From: a virus
Lineage: Duplodnaviria; Caudoviricetes
Virus record (IMG/VR): IMGVR_UViG_3300025637_000049
Coordinates: 1-27,121 of that record
Direction: 5' to 3' (one strand)
DNA: 27,121 nt
A model generated the notes under the pieces. That model did no database searches. It was given only the letters and a program-made list of their open reading frames with translations, and was not told the DNA's origin. Below, piece after piece: positions 351 through 25,308 of the stretch (position 1 is its first letter; the number at the start of each line of letters is the position of its first letter). The position numbers and the translations under genes were made by a program.

Positions 351-731
351 ATGCCTCAGTTAGTTATACTGTCGGGTAGTCCTGGAAGTGGGAAGTCCAC
401 AACTGCCAGAACCAAGTACCCAAACCACCACCTTTGCGACAAAGACCTAGGCACCGAGCGTGACTACCAAAAGTACGTAAACCAAGATTGCGTACTTACA
501 GCTTGCGCCCCCACCAAGAAACAGAAGTCTTATTGGATTAAACAAGCCAAGCTCTATGGCTTTACTCCGTTAGTGCTGGTAGTATGGGTAGATAGAATGG
601 TAGCCTACGACAGAATGCTAGGTCGTAGCGGTACAAGTAAAGACCAGATGAACAACAAACAAGCTGGCGTAGAGCAGTGGTTTAAACTATACAAGCCACA
701 CCCACTAGAACAGAAGGTAGCCAATGAGTGA
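351..731 (+). CDS. Small P-loop kinase/ATPase (AAA_33 / polynucleotide-kinase-like)
   Basis: N-terminal Walker A LVILSGSPGSGKST. RBS GGAGG upstream. Overlaps the next gene by 8 nt. Confidence 0.75.
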   Translation: MPQLVILSGSPGSGKSTTARTKYPNHHLCDKDLGTERDYQKYVNQDCVLTACAPTKKQKSYWIKQAKLYGFTPLVLVVWVDRMVAYDRMLGRSGTSKDQMNNKQAGVEQWFKLYKPHPLEQKVANE

Positions 732-20297: not shown

Positions 20298-21292
20298 TGA
20301 GTAGTGGAATAGTAGCGGCTTCTCGTGGTGTAGGCTTGGAAGATAGCAGTGCAAGTAATGTGCTGCTTAATTCTAAGTTTAATAATGATAACTATCCTGT
20401 GGGATATACTTATGTAGATAACGAACAGGCTTTGACCTACCAACAAAATTCTGGCGTTGAAACATTCCTTCCTGCTTGGGCTAGTGGGAGCTCTTTGTAC
20501 TTTATAGACCCACAATTCGCTACTATGTGCTCTAACCAGTACCTTTATTCTTGGGGTGATTATGAATTAGCCCCATTTTTAGCGGGTTTTATTCCTAGAA
20601 TTAACAAGATATTTGGTGTGTCTAATTTATTCCCAGGAAATACAATAAGTAATGACAATGCAGACAGAGGGGCTGGCAACTATGGGTTTGTTGCAGGTGG
20701 AAACTCTAGGATTGTAAACCACACAACACTCACCACTATAGATAGCAACACCTCTATGGATAACACCGCTATATGGGTAGATTCAACTAAGTGGTGCCAG
20801 CAGTTAAATGTTCCAGATAGTGCCACTACCGTAAAATTTGGCGCACAGATTAGAATACCTTCTGGGGATAAACTCAGACCATTAAACTGGGCGGGGATAG
20901 CTGTAACTCAGGATACGTTCGGGCCAAATTCGACTCCTTGGAGATTCGTTAATTACTTTGGCATCCGTCACACTAATGCTACATTTTCTTTACCTACAAG
21001 CGGGAGCCTCGGTAATCCAGGATATAACTGGGCAGGCCAAGGTGTAGATGCCCCAGTTAGCAGTCCATTCTATACACCAGAAGTTTTTACGGCTACTGAA
21101 CACGCAATGCTAGACCAAGATGATTACGAAGACTTTACCAAAGTTGAGTACACATTCACGCTTAATAGTGGAACCAATAGAAAGATTATGATGCACATAT
21201 TCTTTGCAGAAAACGCTAAGTATATGTATGACGAAGACACAGAACTAACGGGCGGGTTCCAATACTACGACCCCTTTATAGAATTTAGTTAG
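20297..21292 (+). CDS. Fibre-associated protein (possible distal receptor-binding subunit)
   Basis: TAATG coupling to the fibre gene. Aromatic, N/T/S-rich beta-type composition. Stop overlaps the convergent gene. Confidence 0.6.
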   Translation: MSSGIVAASRGVGLEDSSASNVLLNSKFNNDNYPVGYTYVDNEQALTYQQNSGVETFLPAWASGSSLYFIDPQFATMCSNQYLYSWGDYELAPFLAGFIPRINKIFGVSNLFPGNTISNDNADRGAGNYGFVAGGNSRIVNHTTLTTIDSNTSMDNTAIWVDSTKWCQQLNVPDSATTVKFGAQIRIPSGDKLRPLNWAGIAVTQDTFGPNSTPWRFVNYFGIRHTNATFSLPTSGSLGNPGYNWAGQGVDAPVSSPFYTPEVFTATEHAMLDQDDYEDFTKVEYTFTLNSGTNRKIMMHIFFAENAKYMYDEDTELTGGFQYYDPFIEFS

Positions 21293-22011
21293 AAGTACAG
21301 TAGCCGCCTACCATCATCTAAAGTTAGGCCATGCCCCTGCAAGGTTATTCTATGTTCAGAATCTGACATATCACCCTTGTTGGCTATGCGGTGGGGGAAT
21401 AAGCCATCATGTGTGTACAGAACACCTACCTCATACTGCAAGTGTTCATGTGGTGGGTATATATCCTCTTTAATAACCCTGTGCAGGTCTTCCCCCGTTG
21501 CATTAGGCCAGTAGTCCATACCCGCTCCCACAGCAGGTTGTTCAAGAAGCATGGTAAAGCTGAATGGGTTGGTGAAGCCTTTTGAAGGCCAAGCCACTTT
21601 CGAAAACGGCTCATCTATGTGAGCACTGCCCATAAGACCATTGGTGGTGTGGTCAAATATGTGAAATCCAGGACGGGCAATACCCCATGGTTGTTCATAA
21701 CATGCTTCGTAAAACTCATACAGTTTGTGCAGTAATGGTTCAAAGTTCTTAGTTAGTATGGTGTTTAACCTGTTTGCTCTGGCTGGGTACTCACTCACAC
21801 CATCCTGATAGGTGGCCGCCCCTAGTGTAAAGAAGTGGCCTCTGTCTATCCAAGTAAAGCGCAGCTTCTTGACTAAGTTCGCCAAGTCGCTACACTCTTG
21901 TTCGGTGAGGAATTTAGTTGGTGCTATGAGACAACCCTGAGCACCGCAGGGATGGGGAGAGGCAGTGTCTCTCTGTTTATCATCCATCCAAAGCCATTCT
22001 TTTTTAATCAT
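21289..22011 (-). CDS. 2OG-Fe(II) oxygenase superfamily protein
   Basis: FLTEQEC N-terminal motif, H-x-D (AHIDEP), distal H (FPHRIA), 2OG-binding R (HRITLQGH). Start placed at ATG 22011 (ATGA overlap with the upstream stop). Confidence 0.8.
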   Translation of the reverse strand: MIKKEWLWMDDKQRDTASPHPCGAQGCLIAPTKFLTEQECSDLANLVKKLRFTWIDRGHFFTLGAATYQDGVSEYPARANRLNTILTKNFEPLLHKLYEFYEACYEQPWGIARPGFHIFDHTTNGLMGSAHIDEPFSKVAWPSKGFTNPFSFTMLLEQPAVGAGMDYWPNATGEDLHRVIKEDIYPPHEHLQYEVGVLYTHDGLFPHRIANKGDMSDSEHRITLQGHGLTLDDGRRLLYF

Positions 22012-22391
22012 CCTTGGTTTACATAACCTTTCATTTCTTTCTGGCACTCGTCATCCATCAACTTATTAATAAGTATTGAGGCCTCGTAGTAGTCTGCATC
22101 AGCCACATACAATATGGCTGCTTCAACCTCTACTGGTATGTCTACACCCTCCAGCCAAAAGTTCAGACTTATAGAGTCGTCTGGGTGCAGCGCTCTTATA
22201 CCACACTTATTAGCTTTTTTGACAAAACTTAACGCCTTGTCAAGGTCTTGATACCTGTTTTCTTTTTCACGCAGCAAGTACTTAGTTGCGCAAGCCTGTA
22301 AATAGTTCATGTCTGTATCTACAACCATGTCCCAATGTTGGTACTCAGTACCCTCGTAATGCTCTCCACCCACCTGCTTTACATAACTCAT
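22008..22391 (-). CDS. DUF3310 (T7 gp1.7-like nucleotide kinase) protein
   Basis: QVGGEHY ... YLQACATKYLLR ... QDLDKA signature. Start placed at ATG 22391 (ATGA overlap). Confidence 0.8.
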   Translation of the reverse strand: MSYVKQVGGEHYEGTEYQHWDMVVDTDMNYLQACATKYLLREKENRYQDLDKALSFVKKANKCGIRALHPDDSISLNFWLEGVDIPVEVEAAILYVADADYYEASILINKLMDDECQKEMKGYVNQG

Positions 22392-23374
22392 GCTTTCCAC
22401 TCCTGCCATTTTTCACACGCTATACGCCAATTTTGGTCTGATATTTGCTTAACCCAATGAGAGCCATCGCCACCATCTTTCCTTTCCATATACGCCCAGT
22501 ACATGGGGTATGCCACCACTCTAAACCATTGTGTTTTAAGGACAGAGCGGCTGCTAATCAAACCTGCTTCAAAGCATGTGGCGTCATCTATAAAGTCAGC
22601 CATTTTTTCGTAACCGCTTATCAATGGCACACAAGGGTAAAACCCGTAGTTATCAAAGGTTGGCAGTATGGGGTATCTTATGTTCAGCAACTCCGTGGCA
22701 TTGGGTAGGTCTTGGTAAACGTGGGCATTGTTGGTGAATACAATATAGCTACCTATTGGTATATCTGCTTCGGCGGCTATTAACTCTTGCAACATAGTCA
22801 TATGTACAGCATTGGCACCTGTCATACCCCATATAACATCATTGCTACGGTTACAAACTGTCATATTTAGTTTGCCATCAACAACTCTAAAGTATATGTG
22901 GGTATTGCAGGGTAGGTCGTTGTGGTGGGTGTCTAGGTCACAAGACCCATCCCACATAGACAACACTACCCGCCTCGTGGTTGGGTCTTCTTTAAGCATT
23001 CTGGCAGCAGCTATTAACTGGTCTCGGCCAAAGTGGTTGCGCCATCGGTAGCCATAAGCGCCATGTATCAGAGGCTTTTCAACCATGTTGTTGGTGTCTG
23101 CATACTCCTTAAACCTGCCATTAAATTGTTGTATCCAGTCTGGCTCTTGGCTACCCGACATCATCCATATAAACTCCATAGCATGGAAGTATGGGTTAGC
23201 TTTTCGCACTGGGTCTAGCAGTACTCTGTGCTTTGGGTTTTTTACAGTTATTGTCAGCGGCTCCTGTAGGGTTAGCACATTGCCATTCCTACTTTCTTCA
23301 AGGTCGCCATTTATGTGCATGAGAATCATCATCTCGCTGAACATGGTTGGTACATCTCTTACTACTTTTTCCAT
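22388..23374 (-). CDS. Thymidylate-synthase-fold dUMP hydroxymethylase (probable)
   Basis: SRNG, ANPYFH, GAYGYRWR, DPTTRRVVLSMWD, catalytic PCN, RSNDVIWGMTGAN (Asn at the dUMP-specificity position), NNAHVY. Resembles phage hmdU synthases rather than ThyA. Confidence 0.85.
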   Translation of the reverse strand: MEKVVRDVPTMFSEMMILMHINGDLEESRNGNVLTLQEPLTITVKNPKHRVLLDPVRKANPYFHAMEFIWMMSGSQEPDWIQQFNGRFKEYADTNNMVEKPLIHGAYGYRWRNHFGRDQLIAAARMLKEDPTTRRVVLSMWDGSCDLDTHHNDLPCNTHIYFRVVDGKLNMTVCNRSNDVIWGMTGANAVHMTMLQELIAAEADIPIGSYIVFTNNAHVYQDLPNATELLNIRYPILPTFDNYGFYPCVPLISGYEKMADFIDDATCFEAGLISSRSVLKTQWFRVVAYPMYWAYMERKDGGDGSHWVKQISDQNWRIACEKWQEWKA

Positions 23375-23400
23375 TGGTCTCTCCCCATTGGTGGTTGTTA

Positions 23401-24243
23401 TTAAGTGCCATTATACCTACGTTTGCTTCGACCGCAATTAGTAGATACTCTCATATACTTGTCAAATTCACACAAGCAATTCTGTAAGTCTTGGGCGTGT
23501 ATATCTGGTATGCCCAACCCATGCAGTTGGTCTGTTACTTCTTGAAGCAGCCATGGCATATGGTGCTTAAACTCTGTAGGGGTTACTTTTTCTTTCCCAA
23601 GTACCCAAGCCAAGCCCCTCAAACTTCCAGGACCGTGGGCGCACCAACTACGAAAGTCGTCTGCATAAGTAAGCTCGTGACCCTCTGTGTTTTTAAGGTC
23701 AGCTATTATTTGTGCAGCCATGAAACTGCCAAGCCCCTGTAAGCCCATTAGCGCCACATGAGCTTTTGCCAAGGTGGTTGCACCACTTGTTAGGTCTTTT
23801 TGCTGCCACAGGCTGCGTAGCAAGCCCCCAATGTACTCGTGCTTGGGTACACTACGGCCATTAGTACTAACTATATAAGCAGACCCCCAAGAACCACCTT
23901 TTGACATAACCGCTCGCCATTTTGGTGGGTCAAAGGTAGTCCATGGCCACCCAAGTGATTCTAGTGTTTCTATTTTGTTGACAAACCTAGCCATAACCAT
24001 GTTCTGGACTATGGTTTCTGTGGTAAACCCTGCATGTCTGTTATACCACATCTGGCGAATACCTTTAGTAACCCTGTCAGCCTCCCTATGCACATTACAA
24101 AAGTATGTTTCTTGGAATACTTGGTCAAGGCTCCATGGCTTTTCTACACCACTCTCTTTATTGAGCCTTACTGAGTATCGCTCTTTGATCCAGTAAATTA
24201 GCTTGTCCAAATTTAAAGGCTCGTTTCCATTGTACATTAACAT
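23401..24243 (-). CDS. 5-hmdU DNA kinase-like protein (aGPT-Pplase1 / HMUDK helical family)
   Basis: YWIKER ... PWSLD ... YFCNVHREADRVT, GSFMAAQIIADL, GPGSLRGL, DLQNCLCEFDKY. Start placed at ATG 24243, with GGAG 7 nt upstream. Confidence 0.85.
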   Translation of the reverse strand: MLMYNGNEPLNLDKLIYWIKERYSVRLNKESGVEKPWSLDQVFQETYFCNVHREADRVTKGIRQMWYNRHAGFTTETIVQNMVMARFVNKIETLESLGWPWTTFDPPKWRAVMSKGGSWGSAYIVSTNGRSVPKHEYIGGLLRSLWQQKDLTSGATTLAKAHVALMGLQGLGSFMAAQIIADLKNTEGHELTYADDFRSWCAHGPGSLRGLAWVLGKEKVTPTEFKHHMPWLLQEVTDQLHGLGIPDIHAQDLQNCLCEFDKYMRVSTNCGRSKRRYNGT

Positions 24244-24961
24244 CTGTTCTCTCCCCACCGCCCCATGCGGCCTTAGTTGTTTTCTTGACTACCTTAACAA
24301 ACGGCTCATGAAGCTCGTGTAGCTTATTGGCCGCCTCTGTTTGTATCTCTGGAGTTCTGTAGGTACTACACCCTCCTTTGGTATTACTTCCGCCTTGGTT
24401 ATGAACCCAGTTATTAAGGCTAACGTTGGGGTATCCTAACTTTAACATTTGTAACAGCATGTCAAAGTCTTCCATAACAGGCGTTCTGTCATACCTTACA
24501 TCATTGTGACTTAGTATTCTAGTGTCAAGCCCTGTAACTCTTGTTATTCTTGTATTGTCACTCCAGTATTCTGTCTGCCTATTACCCCCCTCTCTAGCGC
24601 AAACCCCTACAACAGGAATACTGTCTAGTGTAACCTCAATGGTATCAACCATCTCCTCTATATCTTCGGGGGTGCTGGGTTTAAACTTACCTAAATCTTC
24701 TTGGCGGCGAGTGGCAAACACTAGGTCGTCATCTAGTAGCAATACTTTGCCCATGAAGTTATCTATAATCCACTGTCTTGTCGGCCCTACCGTGGTTATC
24801 CACTCTGGCAGCACCACAACAGGGTATTGTGTGCGGCACCAGTACTCATCCCACTCTTTACCTTGTACTACAAACTTGGTTCTTTCTCTTACACTTGGGG
24901 GTAGGTTATCCCAAGTAGTCTGTTTAGCTTTCCTACCATAAGTAGGTATTAGTATTTGCAT
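24158..24961 (-). CDS. GT-A DNA glycosyltransferase (TAGT / JGT-GREB1 / T-even beta-glucosyl-HMC-alpha-glucosyltransferase-like)
   Basis: ILIPTYGR, TRQWI, LLLDDDL (DxD), EDFDMLLQML, GGCSTYR, VQWKRAF. RBS GGAGAG. Confidence 0.85.
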   Translation of the reverse strand: MQILIPTYGRKAKQTTWDNLPPSVRERTKFVVQGKEWDEYWCRTQYPVVVLPEWITTVGPTRQWIIDNFMGKVLLLDDDLVFATRRQEDLGKFKPSTPEDIEEMVDTIEVTLDSIPVVGVCAREGGNRQTEYWSDNTRITRVTGLDTRILSHNDVRYDRTPVMEDFDMLLQMLKLGYPNVSLNNWVHNQGGSNTKGGCSTYRTPEIQTEAANKLHELHEPFVKVVKKTTKAAWGGGERTDVNVQWKRAFKFGQANLLDQRAILSKAQ

Positions 24962-24978: not shown

Positions 24979-25001
24979 AAAAAAAGCCCCCGAAGGGGCT
25001 T
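24979..25001 (-). terminator. Intrinsic terminator
   Basis: Minus strand reads AAGCCCC-TTCG-GGGGCTT followed by a T run. Confidence 0.88.
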
Positions 25002-25017
25002 AATTTTAAAACACTTA

Positions 25018-25248
25018 CTATGCAACTTCAATAAACTTTCGGCTGACATCGTAAGCAATGTCTTGGTACTTAACACCATTTGTGATCGCTTGGCCAACAG
25101 TGCTGGCATTCAAGTAACCATCAAAACGTACAGCAGATTTAGAACCTGCTTTTTTAGGGTTTTCATTTACAAGTAGCTTGAGGGTGGCGTCCGCAGGGTA
25201 CAAAACACTGAACTTGCTACGGCGACTCTTTTTAGTTTCTTCGGTCAT
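25018..25248 (-). CDS. Small basic putative DNA-binding protein
   Basis: NPKKAGSKSAVRFDGY ... TVGQ ... G ... DIAYDVSRKFIEV pattern, seen in small phage nucleic-acid-binding-like domains. Has its own promoter and terminator. Confidence 0.7.
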   Translation of the reverse strand: MTEETKKSRRSKFSVLYPADATLKLLVNENPKKAGSKSAVRFDGYLNASTVGQAITNGVKYQDIAYDVSRKFIEVA

Positions 25249-25279
25249 TTTACTTCTCTGGTTGGTTAATAGAGTAAGT

Positions 25280-25308
25280 ATTATACTTCCACTCTATCAT
25301 TATGACAA
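25280..25308 (-). promoter_or_regulatory. Near-consensus sigma70 promoter
   Basis: Minus strand TTGTCA (25308-25303), 17-nt spacer, TATAAT (25285-25280). Confidence 0.8.

Follow-up and report, generated by a model that had tools for sequence, protein, structure and literature searches.

Here we analyze the virus record IMGVR_UViG_3300025637_000049 (Duplodnaviria; Caudoviricetes), a stretch of 27,121 nucleotides that we call the window and for which CheckV estimates a completeness of 72%. Its minus strand carries a cassette of five adjacent open reading frames (ORF1 to ORF5; Table 1) encoding a glycosyltransferase (GT), a helical protein of the aGPT-Pplase1 family, an enzyme with the thymidylate synthase (TS) fold, a DUF3310-like protein, and a 2-oxoglutarate (2OG)-Fe(II) oxygenase. 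A first-pass annotation read the cassette as a thymine hypermodification operon that pairs a 5-hydroxymethyldeoxyuridine (5-hmdU) DNA kinase with the glycosyltransferase and the oxygenase and lacks an amino acid:DNA transferase (AADT). Its gene coordinates and junctions hold: all five genes start with ATG, and in order from ORF1 to ORF5, the first pair overlaps by 86 nt, the second is separated by 26 nt, and each of the last two overlaps by the 4 nt ATGA. Its kinase does not. We consider it reasonably likely, instead, that the cassette specifies a kinase-free thymidine modification in which ORF3 would make 5-hmdU monophosphate (5-hmdUMP), ORF4 would phosphorylate it, and ORF1 would glycosylate 5-hmdU in DNA directly, with ORF2 as a common partner and the oxygenase outside the pathway.

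Table 1. Features of the modification cassette and its upstream flank, in window positions
Feature	Position	Strand	Assignment
ORF1 (267 aa)	24158-24961	minus	TAGT-family GT-A DNA glycosyltransferase; predicted target 5-hmdU in DNA
ORF2 (280 aa)	23401-24243	minus	aGPT-Pplase1 (PF18723), helix-hairpin-helix (HhH) paralog of AADT; candidate converter of 5-hmdU to thymidine
ORF3 (328 aa)	22388-23374	minus	TS fold with dUMP hydroxymethylase residue signature
ORF4 (127 aa)	22008-22391	minus	DUF3310-like; predicted deoxynucleotide monophosphate kinase for 5-hmdUMP
ORF5 (240 aa)	21289-22011	minus	2OG-Fe(II) oxygenase, WelO5/amino-acid-dioxygenase-like fold; probably a passenger
76-aa basic ORF	25018-25248	minus	Conserved ahead of the GT among close relatives (cluster of 15 ORFs from 15 loci)
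Terminator-like hairpin and T run	24984-25001	minus	Precedes the GT start by about 20 nt; consensus match only

Precursor supply and glycosyl transfer

The TS-fold and GT labels of the first-pass annotation were borne out by Pfam matches of ORF3 to thymidylate synthase (E = 1.7e-22) and of ORF1 to TAGT (E = 2.8e-16). ORF3 is 34.6% identical to gp58 of phage M6, and among named proteins its best full-length relatives are enzymes of the M6 type. When ORF3 is aligned with Escherichia coli ThyA, C156 falls on C146, D153 on L143, D179 on D169, and N188 on N177, the last being placed across a one-residue gap. Under residue diagnostics for substrate and hydroxymethylation in TS-fold enzymes (PMC13326640; here and below, papers are cited for the portions of their text that were available), the asparagine at N177 (dUMP) and the aspartate at L143 (hydroxymethylation), together with the lack of the D169N hydroxylase mark, point to a dUMP-specific hydroxymethylating enzyme rather than a dCMP hydroxylase. 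The signature residues are conserved among relatives, and ORF3 likely makes 5-hydroxymethyl-dUMP.

Neither ORF4 nor ORF5 has a Pfam match at E ≤ 0.1. The earlier assignment of ORF4 to DUF3310 thus lacks a direct Pfam match and is recovered through a homolog, M6 gp61, which is 48% identical to ORF4 over 58 aa and itself matches DUF3310; ORF4 also weakly matches a PHROG annotated as nucleotide kinase (E = 0.0037). Because DUF3310 has been tied to the nucleotide kinase activity of T7 gp1.7 (PMC9339283), ORF4 would contribute to the supply of 5-hmdUTP. Of the 80 TS-anchored loci described below, 66 have a DUF3310-like gene. In 12 of the 80, a gene of about 130 codons (cluster c20; L022, L054, L075, and others) stands behind TS where the DUF3310 gene is missing, and the two never occur together, which suggests that c20 is a nonhomologous replacement.

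ORF1 also matches PHROG 842 (E = 1.8e-44). Across 26 homologs, D77-D78-D79 is invariant and D165 (of E164-D165-F166) is at least 90% conserved; DDD and EDF form the motif of JGT-related phage GT-A enzymes, and phage GT-A enzymes with such a motif resemble JGT and glycosylate 5-hydroxymethylcytosine (5hmC) (10.1101/2023.12.21.572611). In a close relative (L011:140-967), the GT is 50% identical to ORF1, with the last 28 residues, which overlap ORF2, identical; ORF2, TS, and the oxygenase of the two phages are 96-97% identical. This pattern suggests exchange of GT alleles between near-identical phages.

Identity and fold of ORF2

The first-pass annotation had called ORF2 an aGPT-Pplase1-family 5-hmdU kinase. 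The family is right: ORF2 matches HMUDK_hel (PF18723) at E = 1.6e-37, with 129.9 bits against a cutoff of 25. Pfam places M6 gp54, gp51, and gp55 in three different families (the kinase PF18748, the AADT PF18724, and PF18723, respectively), and ORF2 aligns along its length with gp55 (28% identity, E = 7e-28), whereas its best E value against the M6 kinase, gp54, is 6.1, no real match. ORF2 contains no P-loop, matches neither the 5-hmdU DNA kinase profile (PF18748) nor, in Pfam, PF18724, and has an all-helical AlphaFold model (predicted local distance difference test [pLDDT] score, 92). The kinases listed in PMC8989533 are all P-loop kinases. The missing P-loop, the lack of a gp54 or kinase-profile match, the helical model, and the gp55 homology rule out a 5-hmdU DNA kinase; by sequence and model, ORF2 is not a kinase. 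Given that the listed kinases are all of the P-loop type, the kinase-plus-GT pairing and the sugar-phosphate product that had been proposed from it lose their basis.

The misassignment has an apparent source. In phage SP10, PF18748 (residues 35-193) and PF18723 (residues 313-598) are fused in one protein, gp186, which would explain the misleading Pfam name "5-hmdU DNA kinase, helical domain," a name that produces false kinase calls. The SP10 kinase domain is active without the C-terminal part, and M6 gp54 and gp51 are enough for reconstitution, gp55 being dispensable for the hypermodified base (PMC8989533). A separate labeling problem affects the kinases themselves, which appear as "terminase small subunit" in the RefSeq records of SP10 (L083:12383-14296), M6 (L004:6411-6974), and P26218 (L005:10603-11181).

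Among 48,161 chains, the top fold match to the ORF2 model is the PaMx11 glycinyltransferase, an AADT (8z2m; Z = 10.6; root mean square deviation, 3.9; 206 residues aligned), with Z values for the ORF2 matches that are moderate for helical proteins. In a profile alignment of ORF2 with the AADTs, C258 falls on C247, the sole invariant cysteine of the AADT alignment, and F174 falls on the base-clamping tryptophan; the position of the glycine-binding lysine is Q178 in ORF2 (residue roles, including that of the metal-binding glutamate, are from PMC11472151). A Cys-Glu pair is kept in all 61 distinct ORF2 homologs, which were taken from TS-anchored loci as ORFs scoring >150 bits and were not chosen by that motif. 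Whether glutamate or glutamine stands four residues before the cysteine does not separate GT loci from kinase loci. Searching the sequences of solved structures with alignment profiles of ORF1, ORF2, and ORF5 returned no matches at E ≤ 1.

GT and kinase as alternative partners

We scanned viral contigs with three anchors, ORF2 (72 loci), TS (the best 80 of 579), and the kinase (the best 80 of 431); these sets are biased to close relatives and include redundant strains, and the kinase-anchored set holds near relatives only, with no TET/JBP-type loci among it. In the 80 TS-anchored loci, ORF2 is present in 77 (the other three are short on the upstream side), GT-A in 41, kinase in 25, AADT in 6, and a GT-B-like gene in 7, an assignment with weak Pfam support for cluster c19 only and made by eye for c24 and c33; GT and kinase never occur together. 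Likewise, 79 of the 80 kinase-anchored loci have ORF2 and 21 have AADT, and none has a GT. The exclusion extends to whole records. Among 50 of them (the 44 longest of 65 relatives, the overlapping contig G001, and five named phages), 12 carry the kinase and 23 carry GT-A with no overlap, and all 7 with AADT are kinase positive. Of the 17 virus records that are ≥90% complete, 10 have GT-A, 3 have the kinase, and 4 have only GT-B-like genes.

When 140 ORF2 proteins were clustered at 90%, the resulting 111 clusters divided into 70 with GT, 34 with kinase, 7 with neither, and none with both. On a FastTree phylogeny of ORF2 (108 rows, with unlabeled and short rows excluded), the GT/kinase label switches at least 10 times, with 7 switches forced by starred branches. 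ORF2 is usually directly adjacent to the GT or the kinase. Because ORF2 accompanies nearly all TS and kinase loci while GT and kinase alternate, we regard TS and ORF2 as the core and GT or kinase as exchangeable. The GT version also occurs in the cultured phages PhiJL001, LuckyBarnes, and phiRSL1, and nucleoside diphosphate (NDP)-sugar genes lie beside the GT in phiRSL1 and in locus L076.

Several other arrangements were observed in these scans. In L026, L033, L046, L055, L059, and L070, the partner belongs to families with no Pfam match that appear by eye to be GT-B-like (c24, c33) or sulfotransferase-like (c21), and radical S-adenosylmethionine (SAM)/SPASM genes are often present at such loci. 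A large class of loci (L045, L277-L303, and others) combines kinase, aGPT-Pplase1, and TS with no AADT nearby; the product there is possibly a terminal phospho-hmdU. In Microbacterium phage Golden (L231:1353-2823), a P-loop kinase 3 adjoins aGPT-Pplase1 and a divergent TS-fold gene is annotated as ThyX, making this phage a cultured testbed. Acb2/Tad1 antidefense domains stand at the cassette end in L033 (12480-13424, fused to DUF3310) and L037 (4967-5821).

Whole-genome content and locus setting

Contig G001 overlaps the window at 99.7% identity and reaches 10.7 kb past it, and L081 bridges the 16 nt between the distal end of G001 (94%) and the start of the window (99.8%). The overlapping contigs close a genome of ∼37.8 kb, a composite of near-identical strains whose size agrees with the completeness estimate. 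The sequence added beyond the window carries genes for PolA, an exonuclease, and a primase-like protein, along with small genes. Profile searches of G000, G001, and L081, with M6 as the positive control, recognized neither a kinase nor an AADT (aGPT-Pplase2) in the composite; the absence of AADT had been anticipated in the first-pass annotation. General Pfam and PHROG scans of the genome proteins named no NDP-sugar genes, so the sugar donor would be host derived. A search for aGPT-Pplase3, which covered G001 and G046 with the window outside it, gave no match anywhere and is uninformative.

A small P-loop ORF lies at window positions 351-731 on the plus strand, upstream of the terminase genes, and matches AAA_33 (E = 1.7e-6). 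It scores 8.7 bits on the 5-hmdU kinase profile versus >100 for members, lies next to the terminase genes >20 kb from the cassette, and was seen in no contigs other than two from the same phage; we treat it as apparently unrelated to 5-hmdU kinases. The early region encodes a pyrimidine-dimer glycosylase-like protein, a weak match (among L080:2286-2747, L080:1744-2070, and L081 near 380-680), and includes two small ORFs in L080/L081 that look paralogous by eye, one of which spans the genome junction.

The cassette comes after a gene for an SNF2-type helicase and converges on the virion genes. The closest cultured-phage relative of the portal protein is that of Myxococcus phage Mx8 (39%). PHROGs name no tail tube or tape measure in the window, and for that reason we infer a short-tailed virion with podovirus-like genes, as did the first-pass annotation. 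The 76-aa ORF upstream of the GT has no Pfam or PHROG match. A near-consensus promoter, this ORF, and the hairpin occupy positions 24984-25308 (minus strand) directly upstream of the GT, a region that may limit read-through into the cassette; terminator-like sites number 8 against 5.2 expected in shuffles, and promoter-like sites (10 observed, 10.8 by chance) are not above chance.

Proposed pathway

We propose that 5-hmdUMP would be synthesized by ORF3, phosphorylated by ORF4 for incorporation, and built into DNA as 5-hmdU by the phage PolA. The TAGT enzyme would then transfer a sugar straight onto the hydroxymethyl oxygen, and the resulting base-J-like nucleotide would protect the phage genome against nucleases of the host. 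Since the NDP-sugar is itself the activated reactant, such direct glycosylation does not require activation by phosphate, and the GT would occupy the place that the kinase and AADT hold in M6-type phages. The earlier suggestion that the acceptor step is a sugar, with a base-J-like glycosyl-hmdU as product, is thus probably correct.

For ORF2 we tentatively suggest a role in converting 5-hmdU to thymidine, although the balance of probability is somewhat against this assignment. Virions of M6, ViI, SP10, and PhiW-14 contain no 5-hmdU, the remainder having been converted to thymine (PMC8989533), by a route described as unknown in PMC5889632. M6 gp51 in the presence of borohydride, which traps the methylene, yields thymidine (PMC8989533). 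SPO1 is without aG/PT-PPlase. ORF2 is a natural candidate: it is paralogous to AADT and retains the cysteine, its M6 homolog is not required for the hypermodified base, and it occurs with GT and kinase alike. Its cysteine would attack C6 of unmodified 5-hmdU, water would leave, and the methylene would be reduced to give thymidine. The conjunction of a base-J-like glycosyl-hmU made from a nucleotide-pool precursor with aGPT-Pplase1 as a kinase-independent 5-hmdU-to-T reductase acting in DNA is more doubtful still.

A number of observations weigh against these proposals. The 8z2m match to ORF2 ties with a queuine-salvage enzyme, a hydrolase, with HhH glycosylases next; the profile alignment that links ORF2 to AADT scores weakly (E = 0.0012, probability 19%); Q254 of ORF2 stands where AADT has its metal ligand, E243, with glutamate at that position in 11 of the 61 homologs; and we identified no site in ORF2 at which a reducing cofactor would bind. 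Using M6 as the positive control, we found no dCMP deaminase or HD nucleotidase in the composite genome. Since these are dTTP-depleting genes, T may be replaced only in part, which would lessen the need for an enzyme that restores it. The characterized phage GT-A enzymes target 5hmC, and the PHROG of ORF1 is that of a second-sugar transferase. Two complete genomes are without ORF2, MW202897 (GT and TS) and P26218 (kinase, AADT, and TS). Lastly, AADT is absent within 8 kb in 59 of 80 kinase loci, and SP10 makes glutamyl-T though no AADT is detectable there by profile (its gp185 does not match the AADT profile), which favors a transferase role for ORF2 in such phages.

Alternative explanations

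ORF2 could be a repair glycosylase or a noncatalytic base-flipping helper of the adjoining modifying enzyme, which we judge unlikely. HhH glycosylases and the queuine-salvage hydrolase match its fold at Z values of 8 to 10, the ORF2-type domain is fused to the SP10 kinase and mostly adjoins GT or kinase, and the two genomes without ORF2 would fit a helper; yet the Cys-Glu pair, invariant where AADT has its nucleophile, suits thiol chemistry better than a passive role, and the SP10 kinase domain works alone (PMC8989533). Slightly less probable is that ORF2 is a group transferase like AADT, placing an amine or other nucleophile onto the C5 methylene, with the leaving group or a second decoration coming from the kinase or the GT. 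The conserved position of the catalytic cysteine (61/61) and the closest fold, 8z2m, speak for such a function, as do SP10, with its kinase-ORF2 fusion, and a 95%-complete genome (G020, the same as L045) that has kinase and ORF2 and neither AADT nor GT-A. However, 14 of the 17 near-complete virus records with ORF2 are kinase free, Q178 replaces the glycine-binding lysine, and M6 reactions lacking gp51 gave no glycine product in PMC8989533.

The first-pass annotation was right in calling ORF5 a 2OG-Fe oxygenase and probably wrong in considering it an oxidation step of the pathway. The family has 86 homologs; in 83 sequences, H131, H207, and R221 are invariant and D133 is at least 90% conserved (HxD...H...R). 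ESM Atlas neighbors belong to the 2OG-FeII_Oxy_3 and WelO5 families, and the model (pLDDT, 89) is a double-stranded beta-helix that matches WelO5 (Foldseek E = 9e-9), an amino-acid dioxygenase, and prolyl hydroxylases. Both motif and model thus indicate that ORF5 is a genuine 2OG-Fe(II) oxygenase. TET, JBP, and AlkB are absent among the fold matches listed, and none of the 83 family members matches the Tet_JBP profile. An oxygenase is carried by 2 of the 111 cassette clusters. Outside this phage group, 1 of 74 ORF5-family loci, the relative L013, lies near any of the TS, ORF2, GT, and kinase genes (at distances of up to 8 kb, many loci being short), and the genes around the family vary widely. 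ORF5 is probably not a pathway step but a mobile gene that became established at the end of the operon in a single lineage. It is improbable that, in this lineage, ORF5 further modifies the altered base or the sugar on it: its translational coupling through the ATGA overlap, its intact motif, and the homolog that also ends the cassette in L013, the nearest distinct relative, are set against this rare and variable linkage and against fold matches that are small-molecule and protein hydroxylases.

T-even-style modification of cytosine is highly improbable. The GT matches PHROG 842 and, weakly (about 24%), T-even beta-glucosyl-HMC-alpha-glucosyltransferases, but ORF3 has Asn rather than Asp at the N177 position (with the one-residue gap crossed), and its M6-type relatives argue for uracil. 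Least probable of all is a kinase that activates 5-hmdU before the GT acts, with a sugar-phosphate or a pair of parallel modifications as the outcome, since ORF2 lacks kinase features and the P-loop ORF at 351-731, the remaining candidate by its AAA_33 match, is disfavored by its low kinase-profile score, its distance from the cassette beside the terminase genes, and its restriction to two contigs of this phage.

Relation to known systems

If the predicted product is correct, a phage glycosyl-hydroxymethyluracil would be the bacterial-virus counterpart of base J, and the GT would be a tool for labeling 5-hmU in normal A pairs. By its distribution and its conserved cysteine, aGPT-Pplase1 is a concrete candidate for the 5-hmdU-to-thymidine step; were it confirmed, it would be a new DNA-base reductase common to kinase-type and sugar-type thymidine-modifying phages. 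Kinase-free cassettes permit a clean three-gene test of this old question. The cassette is widespread rather than unique, and its product is chemically uncharacterized in the literature we found: our search, which had subscription journals and supplements outside its scope, yielded neither biochemical work on aGPT-Pplase1 or on a phage glycosyl-hmU nor a nucleoside analysis of the cultured GT-type phages. Iyer et al. (2013) defined TAGT and aGPT-Pplase and reportedly discussed such gene neighborhoods. Bioinformatic description of these cassettes likely predates the present analysis.

The phage resembles M6, PaMx11, ViI, PhiW-14, and SP10 (PMC8989533, PMC5889632) in having a predicted dUMP hydroxymethylase, aGPT-Pplase1 (gp55 homolog), and a DUF3310-like protein (gp61 homolog) in the replication module. 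It differs in having no P-loop 5-hmdU kinase, AADT, pyridoxal phosphate, radical SAM, or flavin adenine dinucleotide tailoring genes. It also lacks dCMP deaminase and HD nucleotidase, and a TAGT GT-A occupies the slot. With phage 5mYOX/C5-MT/GT-A cytosine glycosylation it shares the GT-A motif, but it has no methyltransferase, its oxygenase has no TET/JBP match among the folds listed or by family profile, and its predicted target is uracil (10.1101/2023.12.21.572611, where ThyS-associated GT-A contigs are counted in bulk). SP-15 and Carin-5 also have sugar-bearing thymidine positions in phage DNA; theirs consist of a linker, phosphate, and oligosaccharide and go with a nucleotide-sugar gene block not seen here (PMC12686479).

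Closest in gene content are PhiJL001, LuckyBarnes, phiRSL1, and the HTVC023P-type pelagiphages, which have the same core of GT, aGPT-Pplase1, and TS; pelagiphage Podoviridae are described with TS and aG/PT-PPlase1 and a putative glucosyltransferase nearby (PMC9599517). PhiJL001 and LuckyBarnes, like the present phage, have no kinase or AADT, whereas the cultured GT-type phages differ from it in gene order and in extras (Nmad5, more GTs, NDP-sugar genes). With kinetoplastid base J (JBP and JGT), the cassette shares a JGT-like GT-A and the predicted product class, a glycosyl-oxymethyluracil. Here 5-hmdU would derive from the nucleotide pool rather than from a JBP dioxygenase.

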